Sequence record: PZ386954.1
Length of the DNA: 42,659 bases
Direction: 5' to 3' (one strand)
DNA from: a phage
Shown: positions 1 through 22,844 of the stretch, piece by piece
Layout of the letters: each line of letters starts with the position of its first letter
Position numbering within the stretch: position 1 is the first letter of the stretch
Notes under the pieces: model-generated
Seen by the model: the letters and a program-made list of their open reading frames with translations, nothing else
What the model was told of the DNA's origin: nothing
The model's database searches: none
Translations under genes and position numbers: made by a program

Positions 1-1737
1 ATGGCAGGAATCGTTCGCGCTCACTACGAGAACAACTTCCCGCTGTTCCTGCATGACTACTTCGCATGGCTGGGCTTTGACCTCACTGAAATGCAGCTCG
101 ACATTGGCCGCTACATGGCCGACAGGACGCTCAAGAACAAGTGCGTCATGGCGCAGCGTGGTGAGGCTAAGTCCACCATCGGCATTGCCCGTGCTCTGTA
201 CGAATTTGTGCAGATGCCGAACGCCACTGTGCTGCTGGTCTCCGGTTCGGATGACTATGCTGGCACGCTCTCGCACGCTATCGTGTCTGCCATCATGCAA
301 TGGGACAGACTTGAATGGCTGCGCCCGGAGACTCGCGCTGGCGCACGTACGTCATACACTGACGGCTTTGACGTGCATCACGCGTTCCGTATCCCTGACA
401 AACAGCCCTCTGTAAAAGCGGTAGGTATCTTCGGCCAGTTGCAGGGGAACCACGTATCGCTGTTGATTGCCGATGACGTGGAGACTACCAGTAACGGTAG
501 CTCTCCTGCCAACCGCGCCCGTATCAACACCCTGACCAAAGAGTTCGCGGCTATCGCCAACGATGGTGCAGAGATTCTGTACCTCGGCACCCCGCAGACT
601 CAGGACTCCATCTACAACACGCTCCCGCAGCGTGGCTTCGACGTTCGAATCTGGCCCGGTCGTTTCCCTACGCCGGAAGAAGAAGAACGGTACGGCGGCT
701 GTCTGGCCCCGTGGATTAAGCAGAAGATGGAAGGCCACCCGGAACTGCGTACTGGCTACGGTATCCTTGGGAACCGTGGTGCTCAGACTGACCCTCAGCG
801 TTATTCTGAGGAGAAGCAGCTCCAGAACGAGCGAGATTATCAGCAGGCAGGCTTCCAGTTGCAGTTCATGCTGGATACGTCGCTGTCTGATGCGCTCAAA
901 CAAACGTTACATCTCAGAGACTTAATCTTCTTCCACGGCTCTACGCAGTCTGCGCCAGAGGTTCTGCACTGGTCGAACCACCCGCGCCATGCCGCCGAGC
1001 TGCCACTGGATTTCCCACTTGCTCGCGCTCAGCTATTCTTGGCTGCTGACTTCTCGGACACGTATGTACCATTCGAAAATACCTCGGCGTTTCTTGACCC
1101 TGCTGGTGGTGGGTCGGACGAATCAGTTATCATCGCCACAGCTTCTGTCGGCCCGTTTATCCACGTCATTGGTATGCACGTCTACCACGGCGGCCAGACG
1201 GAGGAGAATATCAAGGCGGCGGTAGAGTGGCTGTCTGAGGTTGGCGTTAAACGGCTGGTCATTGAGGATAACATGGGCCACGGCACTGTGACCAACATGT
1301 ACCGAGGTGAGATTAAGCGGCAGAGCCTGACCATTGGCTGCGAAGGCGTGTACTCGTCCGGCCAGAAAGAGGTGCGTATCATCAACCGCCTCGGCCCAAT
1401 CATGCAGCGCCACCGTGTCGTTGTGCATTGGTGCGTTGTTGAAGAAGACCTGCGGCTGTGCCGGGGGATGAATAACGGTGGTCGAGAGTTCAGCCTGTTC
1501 TGGCAGCTCCAGAACCTGACCCAAGACCGTCAATCAATCCCTCACGATGACCGTATTGAAACCCTATCTGCTGCCGTGTACCTGCACGCTGAGGTGCTAC
1601 AGCAGGACGAACATGAAGAAGCTGCCAAGCGCGAGACTGCTGCTGCACGAGAGTTCCTTGCCAACCCAATGGGTTACGACGACTCGAAGTGGCGCAGCCA
1701 TAAACCTGTGCGCGGCGTGCGACGGAGACTACGTTAA
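1..1737 (+). CDS. terminase large subunit (T7 gp19-like DNA maturase B); start may lie upstream across the window junction (in-frame ATG at 42636)
   Basis: 578-aa ORF; GFQLQFMLDTS...LHLRDLIFF and C-terminal HDDRIETLSAAV resemble T7 gp19 (LQFMLNPNLSD, LAHDDRLDALA); directly follows the small-subunit gene when the window is circularised. Confidence 0.9.
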   Translation: MAGIVRAHYENNFPLFLHDYFAWLGFDLTEMQLDIGRYMADRTLKNKCVMAQRGEAKSTIGIARALYEFVQMPNATVLLVSGSDDYAGTLSHAIVSAIMQWDRLEWLRPETRAGARTSYTDGFDVHHAFRIPDKQPSVKAVGIFGQLQGNHVSLLIADDVETTSNGSSPANRARINTLTKEFAAIANDGAEILYLGTPQTQDSIYNTLPQRGFDVRIWPGRFPTPEEEERYGGCLAPWIKQKMEGHPELRTGYGILGNRGAQTDPQRYSEEKQLQNERDYQQAGFQLQFMLDTSLSDALKQTLHLRDLIFFHGSTQSAPEVLHWSNHPRHAAELPLDFPLARAQLFLAADFSDTYVPFENTSAFLDPAGGGSDESVIIATASVGPFIHVIGMHVYHGGQTEENIKAAVEWLSEVGVKRLVIEDNMGHGTVTNMYRGEIKRQSLTIGCEGVYSSGQKEVRIINRLGPIMQRHRVVVHWCVVEEDLRLCRGMNNGGREFSLFWQLQNLTQDRQSIPHDDRIETLSAAVYLHAEVLQQDEHEEAAKRETAAAREFLANPMGYDDSKWRSHKPVRGVRRRLR

Positions 1738-2405
1738 TGTCCTTGATTACCATCACTGACCAACAGCGGTACGACATCGGCTACCGCGCCAACATTGCTG
1801 CGAACCTTACGCAGCGTTTCGTGAACAACACGACCACTATCACGGCAGCTCAGGCTGCTGACATCGACACGGCCATCCAGCAGCTCATGACAGCGTTGGA
1901 AGCGGCTGGGTATAGTTCCGTACCGGAAGGCTCAGTAATCGTCGCAGACGGCGCTACAGCGACTGTAGTGAACCAAGACGGCACTGTGTCCAAGTCGGGT
2001 ACGGTTGAGGTCGATGGCTCTACTTATCAGATTCGATTCCCGGTGACTGTCGGTATGAAGTCCAACGGTGACTCAATCTCTGTGCAGAATGTGAACGGTG
2101 CCGCTGGCATTACGTCCACTTCCTTCGTGAACAGCAACGGTGTGCTGCTGGCAGCCCGGCTCCCGGCGACGGTGGCCTGCATCGCCAGCGGTAACGGTAT
2201 CCAGATTCGCAACTCTGCGGGCACGGCTATCGCTAACGCCTCCATCACGGTTTCCAACGGCGTTATTGCGTACGGCACCTTCCCGGCGACCATCGCTGCT
2301 GTGGCTAACGCCGCTGCACTACAGGTTCCGGTGACTGGCACTTACACCGACACTGCAACCTTCACTGTCGCTGGTGGCGTTATCACTGGCATTACCCTCT
2401 CTTAA
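1737..2405 (+). CDS. beta-rich Gly/Thr/Ala/Asn/Val-rich protein, possibly a virion or tail-associated adhesin-like protein
   Basis: 222-aa ORF; ATG overlaps terminase stop (TAATG); low-complexity beta-strand-like composition; no catalytic motif recognised. Confidence 0.5.
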   Translation: MSLITITDQQRYDIGYRANIAANLTQRFVNNTTTITAAQAADIDTAIQQLMTALEAAGYSSVPEGSVIVADGATATVVNQDGTVSKSGTVEVDGSTYQIRFPVTVGMKSNGDSISVQNVNGAAGITSTSFVNSNGVLLAARLPATVACIASGNGIQIRNSAGTAIANASITVSNGVIAYGTFPATIAAVANAAALQVPVTGTYTDTATFTVAGGVITGITLS

Positions 2406-2416
2406 GGAGAATCTTT

Positions 2417-2611
2417 ATGGCACTTGTTGACTCTACCGCTGCTGAACGTGCGGAGTTCGTGGCAGCCTGTAATATGGCGGCCAAGTATCTGAACGTTTGG
2501 ACGGAAGACTACTTCTTCGACACCACCAACACCGAGCTGGTTGCTTACTACCAGACGTTCGTGACCCGTGTACAAACGGCACTCACCAACCTCACTAACG
2601 GCGGCGCGTAA
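2417..2611 (+). CDS. hypothetical protein (64 aa)
   Basis: ATG preceded by AAGGAGA Shine-Dalgarno; no TM segment or motif recognised. Confidence 0.5.
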   Translation: MALVDSTAAERAEFVAACNMAAKYLNVWTEDYFFDTTNTELVAYYQTFVTRVQTALTNLTNGGA

Positions 2612-2621
2612 GGAGTAGCGT

Positions 2622-3110
2622 ATGAAACTGTCTCGGCTAATGGCCGGGGCAGTCCTATCAGCGTCGCTGACTCTGACGGGCTGCTCCGCAACTAGCGCAC
2701 TGTCTGCTGTAACTTCGGCTGTATCTCCCAACAAGCCGGAACTGACGGCTCAAGTAGGTGCAGAGAATACGAAGCAAGGTATCGGTGTGACTGCGAAACA
2801 GTCCGACGAAACAGAAGTCGGTGACGTATCAGGCAACGCGAAAGTGGATACCGCTAAGCAGGGTTCGAATGGCACTTCCGTCAAGGACGTTACAGGAGGC
2901 TCTGTAAACGCTTCTAAGCAGGGGTCGCAAATGACCCAAGGAAACGTACAGGCTCGCACAGTAATCGTCTCACAGAGCGACCCACGCAGTCTCCTGTGGG
3001 CTTTTGGCATGGGCCTTACATGTATCCTTGGTTTAGTCATGTGGTTTGTACCATCTCCGTGGAAAAGGAAAGTGAAAGATGACGGAAGCAAAGAAGGAGC
3101 CAACTCCTAA
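2622..3110 (+). CDS. lipoprotein with C-terminal transmembrane segment; candidate unimolecular spanin
   Basis: N-terminal signal peptide with lipobox LTGC; periplasmic region with repeated AKQG/SKQG units; C-terminal hydrophobic helix LLWAFGMGLTCILGLVMWFV followed by KRKVKDD; SD AAGGAG upstream. Confidence 0.6.
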   Translation: MKLSRLMAGAVLSASLTLTGCSATSALSAVTSAVSPNKPELTAQVGAENTKQGIGVTAKQSDETEVGDVSGNAKVDTAKQGSNGTSVKDVTGGSVNASKQGSQMTQGNVQARTVIVSQSDPRSLLWAFGMGLTCILGLVMWFVPSPWKRKVKDDGSKEGANS

Positions 3111-3462
3111 CATCCACTCGCGTATGGGTGCAGTGGAGGCTCGTATGCAATCCGTAGAACTTCGACTCGACAAGCACGAGGTACAAATCGCCACTCTTGA
3201 AAAGGGCGATGCTGCAATGCTGGCCAAGCTCGCGGAGAACGATACCCGCTGGCAGACCGTTCAGCAGCAGCTCCTTGTGGTTGAGCAAATTCAGGACATT
3301 CAGAAGACTATGAGCCATATCGGTAAGCTGTTTACGGCGGCGGCTCACGCTGTCAAATGGTGTCTCTTAACCGCATCCCTGTGTAGCGGTATCTACTTAG
3401 CGATTAAGGCTGGCGACCTCACGGCTCTCCAGTCCTTTATCACGACTATCTTGGGGATGTAA
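3079..3462 (+). CDS. membrane protein with N-terminal coiled-coil-like region and C-terminal hydrophobic segments; holin candidate
   Basis: 127-aa ORF with SD AAGGAAAG; C-terminal KWCLLTASLCSGIYLAIKAG...FITTILGM hydrophobic; sits immediately upstream of endolysin with overlapping stop/start. Confidence 0.45.
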   Translation: MTEAKKEPTPNIHSRMGAVEARMQSVELRLDKHEVQIATLEKGDAAMLAKLAENDTRWQTVQQQLLVVEQIQDIQKTMSHIGKLFTAAAHAVKWCLLTASLCSGIYLAIKAGDLTALQSFITTILGM

Positions 3463-3998
3463 TGACTAACTTTGAAATCTGTATGCGGTTCACCGGGCTG
3501 GCAGAAGGCGGTTACGCCAACCTGCCCGGCGACACCGGAGGGGAAACGAATCATGGAATTAGTGACGCTCGTGATGGAAAGCTGGATGGTAGAGCTTGCG
3601 GTGTCCCTACTGGGCTTGGCGGCACTATTTGTGTGCCTATCCGCGACCTCACCAAAGCGCAAGCCGAAGCAATCTATCGACGGGACTACTACAGCCCCAT
3701 CCGAGGTGACGAGCTTCACCCTGCGATTGCATGTGCCGTGTTCGACTACGGCGTTAACTCAGGTGTCTCCCGTGCGGCGAAAGCTCTACAGCGGGTATGC
3801 GGCGTTGCACAAGACGGGGTTATTGGCCCTGCTACCGTGGCAGCAGCCAAACGTCTGGAACCTCACTCCGCAGCAGCAGCCATCTGTGACCTTCGTATTG
3901 CGTTCCTAAAGGCTTCTACAGCCCCAACAATCGTTCGGTATAGGGATGCCTTGGTAGCTCGTGCAAAACGCTGTAGCGCTTACTGTGCGACGCTGTAG
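3462..3998 (+). CDS. endolysin, glycoside hydrolase family 108-like N-terminal domain plus peptidoglycan-binding C-terminal domain
   Basis: N-terminal FTGLAEGGYANLPGDTGGETNHGI matches the GH108 EGGY...D.GG.T..GI signature; C-terminal ...VAQDGVIGPATVAAAKR resembles PG_binding_3; no signal or SAR segment. Confidence 0.85.
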   Translation: MTNFEICMRFTGLAEGGYANLPGDTGGETNHGISDARDGKLDGRACGVPTGLGGTICVPIRDLTKAQAEAIYRRDYYSPIRGDELHPAIACAVFDYGVNSGVSRAAKALQRVCGVAQDGVIGPATVAAAKRLEPHSAAAAICDLRIAFLKASTAPTIVRYRDALVARAKRCSAYCATL

Positions 3999-4194
3999 GG
4001 GTATCCGAAAGCTGAGGCAATGAACAGGCCGTGGGTGCAATACCCCGGCTTGAAAATTGACTATTTGTACGTGCCCCTCCCTCGACCCAAATGACCGCGC
4101 GTACCCCCATGACGTGTGCGCGGTTTAGCCTCGCGACGTGCGCGGTATTGTCTCGCGTGCGCTGCGCGGCGCGTCGAAAGGATTGCCTGCGTTC

Positions 4195-4600
4195 GGTATA
4201 GCTCGTGCGTGTCGCGTTTCATCGTCTGCCGTGTGGCGTGCTGTGCGCTGTCCTGCTGGCTGTGCTGTGTGCCTGCTGTGTGGGCTATCGGTGGCGGTGT
4301 GGTGCTGTCCTGTGGGGACGCTCTGCGCTGGCTGTGCGGTGCTGTGCGCTGCGCGTGGTCGGGCGGGTATCTGTCTCTTTTCGTGGCGCGGCGTGGTGCT
4401 GTGTGGTGGCGGTGGTGGCGGTGGTGCTGTCCTGTCTGCTGGTCTACTGTCTGCGCCTCCAGCTCTGCGCGTCATGCTCTGCTCCTGTCTGTCACCTGTC
4501 CTACTGCCTTCACGTTCTGCCGTCTGTCAGTCCTACGGCCTGCCATCCGTCATCCGTTCGGCGCTCGCTTGTTTCGGCTGCGCCGCGCTCGCTCTGCGTA
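4195..4600 (+). repeat. non-coding, extremely A-depleted (G/T/C-only) tract with short degenerate repeats (GCTGTGCG, GGTGGCGGTGGTG, CTGTC); probable genome-terminus or terminal-repeat region
   Basis: by direct count only 4 A residues in 4201-4440; overlapping ORFs in all frames here are low-complexity composition artefacts. Confidence 0.7.
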
Positions 4601-4605
4601 TCTAG

Positions 4606-4634
4606 CGATACTATATCACTATAGACACTTTCAT
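4606..4634 (+). promoter_or_regulatory. conserved element CGATACTATATCACTATAGACACTTTCAT; contains TCACTATAG identical to T7 promoter -8..+1; inverted near-identical copy at 25549-25580
   Basis: TCACTATAG at 4616-4624; about 130 bp upstream of the first sigma70 promoter, a T7 phiOL-like position. Confidence 0.45.
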
Positions 4635-4760
4635 TTACTTATTGATTTATAAGGATTTATTTACTGTATTCAATCGGTATTCTATCCAGTGTTAGGATTA
4701 TCTAATCAAACTTTAATCCTAATGATTACAGTAACTTATCACTTTTCTTGAAAATAATAC

Positions 4761-4789
4761 TTGCAAAGGTATTCGGTATTTGCTGTAAT
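4761..4789 (+). promoter_or_regulatory. sigma70-type early promoter P1 (TTGCAA-N17-TGcTGTAAT)
   Basis: -35 TTGCAA 4761-4766, 17-bp spacer, extended -10 TGc + TGTAAT 4784-4789, AT-rich upstream (AAAATAATAC). Confidence 0.7.
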
Positions 4790-4866
4790 TCATCTCGCCG
4801 GACAACACAGCGTCAACGTGTTGGACGGTGTAGGACGGTAACACTGCTCTTTAACAATCTGGTGTG

Positions 4867-4895
4867 TTGACAAGGCAAGCTCACTATGCTGTAAT
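4867..4895 (+). promoter_or_regulatory. sigma70-type early promoter P2 (TTGACA-N17-TGcTGTAAT)
   Basis: -35 TTGACA 4867-4872, 17-bp spacer, TGcTGTAAT ending 4895. Confidence 0.75.
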
Positions 4896-5004
4896 GCTTC
4901 CACGTCAGCCAGACAAGCCAAATAGTGATGGATAAACACGTTAACACCCACGCAGGCTAACTGGTACGGTTTAATTAACTCTGAACGGGCGCTGATTAAA
5001 TCGG

Positions 5005-5033
5005 TTGACAGGATGAAACGAGTATGCTGTAAT
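5005..5033 (+). promoter_or_regulatory. sigma70-type early promoter P3 (TTGACA-N17-TGcTGTAAT)
   Basis: -35 TTGACA 5005-5010, 17-bp spacer, TGTAAT 5028-5033. Confidence 0.75.
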
Positions 5034-5085
5034 ACACACCAGATTGACAGGGCAGCAAGCCAGTCAGTCAGAAGTAAAAAGGTAG

Positions 5086-5114
5086 TTGACAAGCTGAATA
5101 CGATGTGATGTAAT
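5086..5114 (+). promoter_or_regulatory. sigma70-type early promoter P4 (TTGACA-N17-TGaTGTAAT)
   Basis: -35 TTGACA 5086-5091, 17-bp spacer, TGTAAT 5109-5114. Confidence 0.75.
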
Positions 5115-5960: not shown

Positions 5961-6133
5961 GGAGCATGACTATGTTCACTGCACTGTGTGTTATTGCGGC
6001 GGCGTGTTGGGTTATTGACCAGCGCCTGCCTAAGCGAGCCTGATATGTGGGACTTACTGGTAGCGTTATTCTGGTTCGTCTTTGCAGGCTTGTGGATTTA
6101 CTGGCTGACTCGTCCCAAATTATGGTGACTGCC

Positions 6134-10849: not shown

Positions 10850-11053
10850 ATGTTCCGAGTTATATTGTTGTTCCTGTTCCTCGTTATTATTTGGGGAGCT
10901 TTATGGATGGCGCTGGCAGTGTTCGCACTGATACCAGCCATCGGTGAGTCGGCTACTTCTTCGGTGGGTACGCTGCTCGGTATGCTGGTAGGCTGGGGCT
11001 TGATGCACGTAAGCCTGAGCGTAGGTCAGAGCCGGAGGTGGATTAGATGGTAA
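10850..11053 (+). CDS. small membrane protein (67 aa)
   Basis: highly hydrophobic, predicted TM helices; GAGGATGA upstream. Confidence 0.55.
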   Translation: MFRVILLFLFLVIIWGALWMALAVFALIPAIGESATSSVGTLLGMLVGWGLMHVSLSVGQSRRWIRW

Positions 11054-22100: not shown

Positions 22101-22671
22101 GAAGGGTAAGCAGTTTATCTTAGACCCGTCCCGTAATTGGGGTACTGGCACACTGCTGAGCGACATTGCTGAGCAGGGTATCATCCTGACGTACGACGAG
22201 CCGTATGACGTGCCGAACGATAGCCGGGACTACTACACCTGCGTGAAGGATGGTAAGACTCACCTGCTTGTGCTGGAGCCTTACGAGGTGAAGGAAGTCG
22301 AGACTGCATTCATCCCGGTTGACCCGTACGACCCGGCCTCTGATGTTGAGGTGGCCGTGGCCAAGAGTGCCGGGCCGGGCGGTATGAAGTTCGACGGCGG
22401 CAAGCCCCGCATGTCCTTGTTGTTCGATGGCTGCCCGAATGCGCTGGAGGCTGTGGCCAGCGTGCTCACCTTCGGCGCAGAGAAGTATGCAGCCCACTCG
22501 TGGCAGACTGTACCGGAAGGTGAGGAACGCTACAAGTCGGCGCTGCTCCGGCACCTGACGGCGGTGGGCAAAGGTGAGGAACTGGATAGCGAATCCAACC
22601 TACACCATCTGGCGCACGCCGCGTGCAATGCGCTGTTCATTCTGGAACTCGAATTAAGGAAACGCAAATGA
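22093..22671 (+). CDS. conserved phage protein; C-terminal domain resembles the family sometimes annotated dATP/dGTP diphosphohydrolase N-terminal-like or DUF
   Basis: KFDGGKPRMSLLF...ALEAVASVLTFGAEKY...RYKSALLRHL...HHLAHAACNALFILE; assignment from memory of the family, not searched. Confidence 0.5.
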   Translation: MSKKGKQFILDPSRNWGTGTLLSDIAEQGIILTYDEPYDVPNDSRDYYTCVKDGKTHLLVLEPYEVKEVETAFIPVDPYDPASDVEVAVAKSAGPGGMKFDGGKPRMSLLFDGCPNALEAVASVLTFGAEKYAAHSWQTVPEGEERYKSALLRHLTAVGKGEELDSESNLHHLAHAACNALFILELELRKRK

Positions 22672-22844
22672 GTGTTTTACTTTGGATTGTAGCTGTGGTA
22701 TGGTTTGCCCTGTTCTCTGTTGTCTGTCTGGCCGCGTGCGACCAGTACAACAAGACGCACGTTGACAGGTCTGGTGCAGCAGGCTTTATCCTGTGGTTAT
22801 TTCTGGCTGTCATCCCCGCTGTTCTGTTTGCCTGTCTTGCGTAG
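22668..22844 (+). CDS. small two-TM membrane protein (58 aa)
   Basis: ATG with AAGGAAA SD; two hydrophobic helices separated by DQYNKTHVDRSG. Confidence 0.5.
   Translation: MSVLLWIVAVVWFALFSVVCLAACDQYNKTHVDRSGAAGFILWLFLAVIPAVLFACLA

Follow-up and report, generated by a model that had tools for sequence, protein, structure and literature searches.

[quoted passage not shown] The T1gp11 family of SpaninDataBase lists gp45 of J8-65 and gp53 of LIMEzero among its members (Kongari et al. 2018, PMC6139136, Table 5). In the T1 gp11 family the u-spanin occurs with a pinholin/SAR pair, whereas that of the Bonnellvirus coliphage analysed here occurs with a soluble endolysin, an exception already remarked on for the u-spanins of J8-65 and LIMEzero by Kongari et al. 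(PMC6139136). The u-spanin gene is last in the cassette of T1 and first in that of the present phage. Lambda Rz/Rz1 shares the final step of lysis, in which a murein-restrained protein bridge between both membranes disrupts the outer membrane, but the present u-spanin is one polypeptide rather than two and has no coiled-coil periplasmic domain, intermolecular disulfides, or sequence similarity to the lambda proteins.

KP34-like (Drulisvirus) and PhiM1-like (Phimunavirus) phages, also Autographiviridae, have already been described as carrying u-spanin, holin, and endolysin genes in that order behind the terminase (PMC4411677, PMC6115819). Their cassettes resemble that of the present phage in their position after TerL and two small open reading frames (ORFs), in gene order, and in their homologous u-spanin. 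They encode a holin of 83-89 amino acids with a central transmembrane domain (TMD) and a charged C-terminal tail, together with a SAR lysozyme, whereas the present phage has instead an unrelated tail-anchored coiled-coil protein of 127 amino acids and a soluble GH108 enzyme; the holin-endolysin pair is swapped as a module between these cassettes. Neither the Bonnellvirus literature (PMC8402661) nor the genome annotations of Bonnellvirus and Waewaevirus name a holin, and in one paper the endolysin alone was recognisable.

Genome and layout of the cassette

The window analysed, a stretch of 42,659 nucleotides, is a complete Bonnellvirus genome (Autographiviridae) with 97.8% identity to Escherichia phage aldrigsur, and positions 2622-3998, near its right end, form the late lysis cassette (Table 1). 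The three ORFs of the initial annotation are correctly placed and all lie on the + strand. Their starts overlap as had been claimed, the 162- and 127-amino acid ORFs sharing 32 nt and the 127- and 178-amino acid ORFs sharing 1 nt (TAATG). The upstream neighbour of the cassette, a conserved 64-amino acid ORF, lies between the terminase-proximal gene of 222 amino acids and the u-spanin gene and has syntenic counterparts in J8-65, LIMEzero, and KP34-like phages. A scan of positions 1600-4800 for promoters and terminators returned a number of sites not above that in shuffled sequence.

Table 1. Features of the lysis cassette and its upstream neighbour
Feature	Positions	Strand	Basis
Conserved soluble ORF, 64 aa, upstream neighbour of the cassette	2417..2611	+	Strong Shine-Dalgarno, synteny
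u-spanin, 162 aa	2622..3110	+	Sequence, hydropathy, phrog_1804, T1 gp11 homology
Middle protein, 127 aa, tail-anchored coiled coil, probable holin or holin subunit	3079..3462	+	phrog_35530, AF2, gene context
In-frame ATG inside the middle gene (Met23)	3145..3147	+	Shine-Dalgarno context
Soluble GH108-type endolysin, 178 aa	3462..3998	+	PF05838, phrog_315, PDB relatives

The unimolecular spanin and the endolysin

The 162-amino acid lipoprotein has a signal-like N-terminus, MKLSRLMAGAVLSASLTLTG followed by Cys21, in which the signal (residues 1-20) consists of MKLSR, a hydrophobic core, and then LTG-C21. Serine rather than aspartate occupies the +2 position (Ser22), which fits outer-membrane sorting, the rule on Asp at +2 being well established for the Lol pathway. 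One strong hydrophobic segment spans residues 122-145 (Kyte-Doolittle 19-residue maximum 2.01) and is followed by a short basic tail, WKRKVK, of which KRKVK is predicted to be cytoplasmic. Sequence and hydropathy thereby bear out the lipobox (LTGC) and single C-terminal transmembrane helix that had been claimed. The only cysteines are residues 21, in the lipobox, and 134, within the TMD, and none is periplasmic. The periplasmic domain, residues ∼22-121, carries a conserved TAQVGAENTKQ motif and modules of ∼21 amino acids. An AF2 model built from 21 sequences has helices at residues 4-20 and 121-142, with no secondary structure and a low-confidence pLDDT of 41-49 for residues 31-120. Members of the T1 gp11 family are expected to have a periplasmic domain rich in beta strands; for that of the J8-65 u-spanin, of 102 amino acids, the published prediction assigns 34% to beta and 15% to helix (PMC6139136 supplement).

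Homology places the protein in a known family. It is 35% identical to T1 gp11 (BLASTP, E 1e-16), 33-55% identical to the u-spanins of KP34-like and PhiM1-like phages, and 94.5% identical to its ortholog in the sister phage J8-65 (gp45), and it matches phrog_1804, 'Rz-like spanin', at 2.7e-36. The likeness to the T1 gp11 family extends to the lipobox with a C-terminal TMD, the lack of periplasmic cysteines, the TAQVGAENTKQ motif, and the place in a lysis cassette. Cys21 is invariant across 21 u-spanin homologs and is also present in T1, KP34-like phages, and Peat1; this cysteine and the Q-V-G within the motif are invariant, and the TMD is likewise kept, in the homologs from T1, KP34-like phages, Peat1, and LIMEzero. 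Architecture, homology to T1 gp11, the phrog_1804 match, and the place of the J8-65 ortholog in the T1gp11 family all favor a u-spanin over an Rz/Rz1 pair, as had been proposed, and by these sequence criteria the lipoprotein is a unimolecular spanin. This central claim of the initial annotation is correct yet already known, as the u-spanin of the genus has been published and RefSeq annotates it as a spanin.

GenBank records name the gene variously 'Rz1-like' or 'Rz1A', labels that would suit a different assignment, in which the lipoprotein is either a non-spanin with a superinfection-exclusion or receptor-blocking role (Llp/Cor-like) or an o-spanin paired with the middle protein as i-spanin, which the latter, with its coiled coil and membrane segment, superficially resembles. 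Such an assignment is highly improbable, as the lipoprotein is itself equipped with a C-terminal TMD, is directly homologous to T1 gp11, lacks periplasmic cysteines such as two-component spanins use (PMC6139136), and would be paired with a protein whose coiled coil is predicted to be cytoplasmic, not periplasmic. The two genes also occur apart: the u-spanin is present in some middle-gene loci and absent from others (no lipoprotein accompanies the middle gene in L014, L017, and L018), and KP34-like, PhiM1-like, and T1-like phages have a u-spanin of this family but no middle gene. An embedded or separate o-spanin was rejected after a lipobox search across the genome, covering all start codons of both strands, which found no credible lipoprotein ORF except 2622-3110; the three remaining matches fall in the terminal-repeat stretch at 4200-4650, which has no genes, and are spurious.

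At 162 amino acids the u-spanin is longer than its relatives (about 129-134), those of T1, KP34, and PhiM1 being about 30 amino acids shorter, and the extra length is due to ∼21-amino acid modules inserted in the periplasmic linker. The internal (A/S)KQG repeats noted in the initial annotation are a consequence of these insertions. They are confirmed in part: TKQG, AKQS, AKQG, and SKQG stand at residues 50, 58, 78, and 98, but the self-similarity at 20-21 residues is marginal, with a score of 27-28 that reaches only the 95th percentile of the protein's own shuffles. It is clear in LIMEzero, where the same 21-amino acid unit is plainly duplicated (score 62 vs. a shuffle maximum of 36). No tandem repeats were found at the DNA level within the spanin gene. 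Length classes of about 129, 162, and 188 amino acids are discrete, set apart by the inserted modules, and offer a natural series for probing how periplasm-spanning length relates to function.

The GH108-type call for the endolysin is upheld by its match to Pfam family PF05838 (2.4e-22; 79.7 bits, cut-off 21.2) and by its relatives in the PDB, 7dnp (9.2e-24), 2is5, 2ikb, and 2nr7. The protein also matches the phrog_315 endolysin (6.9e-41), carries the EGGY motif as AEGGY at residues 14-18, and scores slightly below the cut-off for the PG_binding_3-like C-terminal region, PF09374 (23 bits vs. 24.6). Neither a SAR domain nor a signal peptide was found, the hydropathy maximum in the first 45 amino acids being 0.31, whereas the SAR endolysins of Peat1 and of one KP34-like phage reach 1.82-1.89 at their N-termini. 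The product is, as far as sequence can tell, a soluble GH108 endolysin.

The middle protein as a candidate holin

The middle protein matches phrog_35530 (1.1e-58), a PHROG of function unknown, and has a conserved N-terminal motif, PNIHSRMGAVEARM. A membrane protein is plausible, if less firmly so than the initial annotation had it, as there is one hydrophobic segment of moderate strength (maximum 1.58 at residues 91-109); the TMD of the relative P0045 is weaker still, with a hydropathy down to 0.75. The AF2 model (pLDDT 84.6) consists of a single long helix, residues 12-110, and a short C-terminal helix, residues 114-126. The weakly hydrophobic TMD is predicted to be the last ∼20 residues of the long helix, about 88-109, and the hydrophilic part is an N-terminal coiled coil of 85 amino acids. 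A K-x-G-D motif follows at 110-113, with K/R/H-x-G-D kept in all 11 family members, and the tail, KAGDLTALQSFITTILGM, is uncharged, unlike the charged hydrophilic C-terminal tail of canonical holins (classes I-III). Because the TMD is C-terminal and there is no signal sequence, the coiled coil is predicted to be cytoplasmic, not periplasmic (N-in/C-out).

The middle gene also contains an internal start codon, Met23, preceded by GGAGG at 5-nt spacing. Met23 is the annotated start of the gene in J8-65 and LIMEzero, and GGAGGC-CGT-ATG is kept in LIMEzero; a second product of 105 amino acids could be made from it. As the sole start it was rejected: residues 11-22, which precede Met23, show conservation in LIMEzero and distant homologs, and the longer product must therefore be made.

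An architectural parallel exists in PF10779, the family of the tail-anchored holin components XhlA, from the PBSX prophage of Bacillus, and gp24.1, from SPP1. These share with the middle protein a cytoplasmic coiled coil at the N-terminus, which includes a conserved histidine, and a single C-terminal TMD; their genes likewise lie directly upstream of an endolysin and have a possible dual start. Alignment of the middle-protein family with XhlA and SPP1 gp24.1 by hhalign gave 92% probability (E 6.4e-7) over only 38 columns, all in the N-terminal coiled coil, while reversed controls reached 10-17% and shuffled ones no more than 1.5%. Against PF10779 the protein scores 14.3 bits, under the gathering score of 34.7, and half of the family members (5/10) have sub-threshold matches, with a best E of 0.0019. 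Unlike XhlA, the middle protein has a further ∼35 helical residues separating the matched region from the TMD, carries a conserved K-x-G-D tail, belongs to a phage of a Gram-negative host, and lacks an adjacent XhlB-type partner with two TMDs.

This profile match and the tail-anchored coiled-coil architecture raise the alternative that the middle protein is half of a two-part holin, comparable to XhlA/XhlB of PBSX or gp24.1/gp26 of SPP1, with a small two-TMD partner encoded elsewhere, at 10850-11053 or 22623-22844. XhlA and gp24.1 are harmless singly and lethal only with their two-TMD partners, and in SPP1 the two genes are not transcribed simultaneously (PMC6316719); the present genome does carry small two-TMD ORFs of unknown function. 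We nevertheless regard a divided holin as unlikely. Both ORFs lie in the early/middle region and match no holin or other family, and both are patchily distributed: the ORF at 22623 occurs in 14 records and is absent from J8-65, smaasur, Lidtsur, LF82-23, and LIMEzero, while that at 10850 occurs in 18 records and was undetected in Lidtsur and LIMEzero. Near the middle gene there is no two-TMD ORF, either here or in any related contig.

Conserved gene context speaks for a holin-type role. The middle gene, present in all 22 records of its group, lies directly upstream of the endolysin with the 1-nt overlap noted above, an arrangement shared by LIMEzero, and among distant contexts that take in the downstream gene its rare relatives are directly upstream of a soluble endolysin in five of five (L011, L013, L014-16, L017, and L018). 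The neighbouring enzyme belongs to GH108 in the present phage and in LIMEzero, and in the distant contexts it is a PF00959 lysozyme. No membrane protein other than the middle protein adjoins the endolysin, in this genome or in any related locus. Phages with the same u-spanin family and SAR endolysins carry a small, unrelated pinholin at the same position, and the middle gene therefore co-varies with endolysin type.

The hhalign match to XhlA and gp24.1 also favors such a role. No Pfam holin family matches the middle protein, and the holin family phrog_1296 is matched by one of ten family members (E 0.005). The weak TMD, the missing holin profile, the 38-column extent of the XhlA match, the uncharged tail, the lack of an adjacent two-TMD partner of the kind that XhlA and gp24.1 need (PMC6316719), and the existence of three other small membrane ORFs elsewhere in the genome count against a holin. 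Together with a large cytoplasmic coiled coil, uncommon among holins, and a possible dual start, the first two of these would also fit a protein that regulates lysis, as an antiholin or timer, or one that tethers the endolysin to the membrane or acts as its chaperone, with the true holin unrecognised or another escape route for the enzyme. Soluble endolysins require a membrane lesion, however, and no other holin candidate was found in or near the cassette across related loci. That the gene is coupled so closely, stop to start, with endolysins whose two folds are unrelated also speaks for generic release rather than an enzyme-specific chaperone, and we give a regulator or tether little credence. 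The tentative holin assignment of the initial annotation gains from the conserved gene context, which supports a holin-type role; the middle protein, although it matches no holin profile, is probably a holin or holin subunit.

Other ORFs were considered for the same role. A +1-frame ORF within the endolysin gene (3553-3909) was dismissed as a chance ORF, with more substitutions than the endolysin frame and no family matches. It encodes a TMD-like stretch followed by KRKPK and is open in Bonnellviruses, the hydrophobic stretch being lost in LIMEzero. The 64-amino acid ORF upstream of the cassette, having no hydrophobic segment or TMD, was likewise rejected, and no test gave any sign of a lysis protein. 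Three further small membrane ORFs lie elsewhere in the genome, outside the cassette. These, at 10850-11053, 22623-22844, and 5988-6128, were set aside as holins given their lack of family matches, early/middle location, and patchy conservation; they might still act as holin partners.

Proposed lysis pathway and its implications

We think it quite probable that the cassette supplies the three steps of Gram-negative lysis, with the middle protein as holin, the GH108 enzyme as endolysin, and the lipoprotein as u-spanin. At the inner membrane, the tail-anchored middle protein, with its coiled coil of ∼85 residues in the cytoplasm, would build up and at a set time permeabilise the membrane, alone or with a partner, releasing the endolysin. 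At the cell wall, the GH108 endolysin, a member of an identified family that has no export signal, would rely on this hole to reach and degrade peptidoglycan. The u-spanin would by then be anchored in the outer membrane via lipidated Cys21 and in the inner membrane via its C-terminal TMD; once the murein is gone it would be free to collapse and fuse or otherwise disrupt the outer membrane, a mechanism suggested by its homology to T1 gp11.

More tentatively, and with rather more doubt than confidence, the phrog_35530 protein may represent a kind of holin, hitherto unrecognised, that serves soluble endolysins in podophages of Gram-negative hosts, tail-anchored with a long cytoplasmic coiled coil, distantly akin to XhlA and gp24.1, acting without an adjacent XhlB-type partner, and moving as a module with endolysins of different folds.

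For Bonnellvirus and Waewaevirus annotations that name no holin, the conserved middle gene, flanked by those for spanin and endolysin, is the evident candidate. Should its product prove to be a holin, the XhlA-type tail-anchored architecture would extend to phages of Gram-negative hosts, and the annotation of lysis cassettes would be improved.

Genomic position of the lysis cassette

Window positions 1-4100 match 20 phage records by megablast, the closest being Escherichia phage aldrigsur (97.8% identity, 100% of query), and every classified match belongs to the genus Bonnellvirus (Autographiviridae), with phage J8-65 as type species. The 42.6-kb window is the whole genome, circularly permuted and opening inside the large terminase gene. 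The stretch directly after the endolysin gene aligns to the J8-65 right end and covers the terminal repeat annotated there, so the linear genome has its physical ends just past the endolysin, with the cassette as its final coding block. This stretch is G/T-rich and gene-free, with degenerate direct repeats (e.g., GCGGTGTGGTGCTGTCCTGTGG, four copies), and the long ORFs within it are spurious.

Two neighboring features were also observed. A 30-nt element (GTTGACA, 14 nt, then TGCTGTAAT), present in four spaced copies, resembles a sigma-70 promoter (-35 TTGACA, -10 TGTAAT-like); by analogy with T7-like phages, these copies are probably early promoters for host RNA polymerase at the left end of the genome. 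On the other side, the 222-aa protein after TerL ends in TATFTVAGGVITGITLS, a motif with a weak match to a 'virion structural protein' PHROG that also closes 98-aa proteins at the equivalent position in two distant gene contexts (L012, 249-545; L018, 163-459), and this C-terminal region looks like a small conserved module between terminase and lysis genes.

Coordinates of the lysis cassette and of other features discussed in the window
Feature	Position	Strand	Details
Protein after TerL	1737-2405		222 aa; phrog_9732, function unknown
u-Spanin ORF	2622-3110	+	162 aa; 32-nt overlap with next ORF
Middle ORF	3079-3462	+	127 aa; 1-nt overlap with endolysin start (TAATG)
Endolysin ORF	3462-3998	+	178 aa
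ORF inside endolysin gene	3553-3909		118 aa; +1 frame
Terminal-repeat stretch	~4068-4650		no genes
Promoter-like elements	4760-5114		30 nt, four copies
Small membrane ORF, early/middle region	5988-6128		46 aa; predicted
Small membrane ORF, early/middle region	10850-11053		67 aa; predicted
Small membrane ORF, early/middle region	22623-22844		73 aa; predicted

A u-spanin of the T1 gp11 family

All three cassette ORFs of the initial annotation are present, with the overlapping starts it described. The 162-aa protein begins with MKLSRLMAGAVLSASLTLTG-C21, with Ser at +2, and has one strong hydrophobic segment, a transmembrane domain (TMD) at 122-145 (Kyte-Doolittle 2.01). Apart from Cys21 it contains a single cysteine, Cys134, which lies within the TMD. 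Both the lipobox and the C-terminal TMD that had suggested a u-spanin are therefore in place. Across the whole genome (all start codons, both strands), this is the sole credible ORF with a lipoprotein signal, three further matches being spurious ORFs within the gene-free terminal-repeat stretch, so there is no separate Rz1-type o-spanin, and the choice of a u-spanin over an Rz/Rz1 pair holds.

The protein matches phrog_1804 'Rz-like spanin' (2.7e-36). By tblastn it matches 344 phage records, among them PhiM1-like phages of Pectobacterium at 51-55% identity, KP34-like phages of Klebsiella at ~33%, and a T1-like siphophage that has the gene annotated as u-spanin. Pairwise BLASTP with T1 gp11 gave 35% identity (E 1e-16), and the J8-65 ortholog is 94.5% identical. 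The lipobox Gly-Cys, most of TAQVGAENTKQ, and the C-terminal TMD are kept in an alignment of seven proteins (T1, BrunoManser, KP34-like, Peat1, LIMEzero, J8-65, and the window protein), and the same pattern was found among 21 sequences from a large protein database. AlphaFold2 predicts a signal helix and a TMD helix, with pLDDT of 41-49 in the periplasmic domain, which is expected to be beta-rich. T1 gp11 complements a lambda RzRz1 defect, and its published u-spanin family names J8-65 (163 aa) and LIMEzero (188 aa), which were remarked on as unusually long and are the only members without a pinholin and SAR endolysin pairing (Kongari et al. 2018, PMC6139136). KP34-like and PhiM1-like phages are likewise already described as having u-spanin, holin, and endolysin genes, in this order, behind the terminase (PMC4411677, PMC6115819). 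The sequence shows the architecture and homology of a u-spanin; given the T1 gp11 homology and the J8-65 ortholog in the published family, this reading is correct and already in the literature, and the finding as initially stated is already known.

The (A/S)KQG repeats attributed to this protein stand only in part: the motifs are there (TKQG at 50, AKQS at 58, AKQG at 78, SKQG at 98), but the best ungapped self-comparison, at offsets of 20-21 residues, scores 27-28, which for the 162-aa protein alone is no better than the 95th percentile of shuffles. The LIMEzero u-spanin scores 62 at a 21-residue offset, against a shuffle maximum of 36. In alignments, LIMEzero-type u-spanins have one extra 21-aa copy of DVSGNAKV(D/E)(T/N)AKQGxxxxxVK and ~129-aa relatives lack a block present in the 162-aa protein; the lengths of database homologs cluster around 129, 162, and 188 aa. 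No repeat was detectable in the u-spanin gene at the DNA level.

A soluble endolysin and the gene upstream of it

The GH108-type endolysin proposed earlier was borne out by a Pfam GH108 match (2.4e-22; PG_binding_3 region sub-threshold) and by matches to the PHROG 'endolysin' and GH108-like solved structures (7dnp, 2is5, 2ikb). Its N-terminus is not hydrophobic, with a maximum of 0.31 vs. 1.8-1.9 in the SAR endolysins of Peat1 and a KP34-like phage, and its sequence is that of a GH108 enzyme without an export signal.

The middle protein matches only phrog_35530 (function unknown), and among GenBank phages its gene occurs only in Bonnellvirus and LIMEzero, always labeled hypothetical, with records differing over the annotated start. 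A paper on one bonnellvirus states that, of its lysis system, just the endolysin was recognizable (PMC8402661). Across 1.84 billion representative proteins, an exhaustive profile search turned up only ~9 full-length relatives, the other matches being generic coiled coils. A middle-family gene lies directly upstream of an endolysin in each context: a GH108 enzyme in the window and LIMEzero, and a PF00959 lysozyme with no hydrophobic segment at its N-terminus in the distant contexts L011, L013, L014-16, L017, and L018. An upstream u-spanin is present in L011 and L013 and absent in L014, L017, and L018. At all these loci, no credible membrane protein besides the middle-family protein and the spanin lies near the endolysin. 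Phages that combine a u-spanin of the same family with SAR endolysins encode an unrelated holin of 71-89 aa, in which the TMD is central and the tail charged. The middle gene therefore co-varies with soluble endolysins, not with the spanin, as expected of a protein that gives such an endolysin passage across the inner membrane, and this coupling is conserved.

In the metagenomic podophage contigs L014 (5001-5863), L017 (1569-2430), and L018 (474-1342), the region behind the terminase is followed by the middle-family gene and a soluble PF00959 lysozyme, and no u-spanin or other lipoprotein was found within the sequenced stretch.

The middle protein as a putative holin

In the AlphaFold2 model (pLDDT 84.6), residues 12-110 form one unbroken helix and residues 114-126 a second, short one. 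The long helix closes with ~20 residues of moderate hydrophobicity in which Ala, Ser, Gly, and Cys are frequent, and a K/R/H-x-G-D motif follows this hydrophobic stretch in all 11 family members examined. Residues 11-22 (NIHSRMGAVEAR) are kept in distant homologs and, upstream of the annotated start, in LIMEzero, so the 127-aa form is made. An in-frame internal ATG, Met23 (3145), stands behind a strong GGAGG Shine-Dalgarno, and LIMEzero keeps GGAGGC-CGT-ATG although the amino acids upstream have changed; the gene may therefore also yield a shorter product, and a dual-start (holin/antiholin-like) arrangement is possible.

A link to XhlA is suggested by sub-threshold Pfam matches in five of ten family members and by matches of three of the ten to phrog_1193 'hemolysin', taken from its name to be the XhlA family. 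Profile-profile comparison with XhlA/SPP1 gp24.1 (20 homologs) gave 92% probability (E 6.4e-7) over 38 N-terminal columns, including the conserved His of a (K/R)H(D/E)xQI motif, against 10-17% for reversed sequences and ≤1.5% for 20 column shuffles. In Bacillus phages, XhlA and gp24.1 act as tail-anchored holin components; they are encoded next to the endolysin and kill only together with a two-TMD partner, XhlB or gp26 (PMC6316719). The middle protein shares their architecture and gene position; however, it falls below the Pfam threshold and lacks an adjacent two-TMD partner, and the match ends before its TMD. The link is thus only a lead, not family membership.

Other membrane proteins could in principle supply the holin. 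The three small membrane ORFs of the early/middle region have no Pfam or PHROG match and are patchy among phages having the middle gene; the ORF at 22623 shares 96% identity with mellemsur but just 53% with aldrigsur, although aldrigsur is the nearest genome as a whole, and this indicates mosaic exchange in the middle region. The ORF inside the endolysin gene has a TMD-like stretch followed by KRKPK and is open in Bonnellviruses, but it is rejected as a holin candidate and is probably due to chance: its hydrophobic stretch is gone in LIMEzero, and no family matches were found.

The middle protein, the only part of the cassette not already explained, is a plausible holin or holin subunit. It would make, or help make, the inner-membrane lesion; the endolysin would then degrade the murein. 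As has been proposed for T1 gp11, the u-spanin, once released from the murein mesh, would then disrupt the outer membrane.
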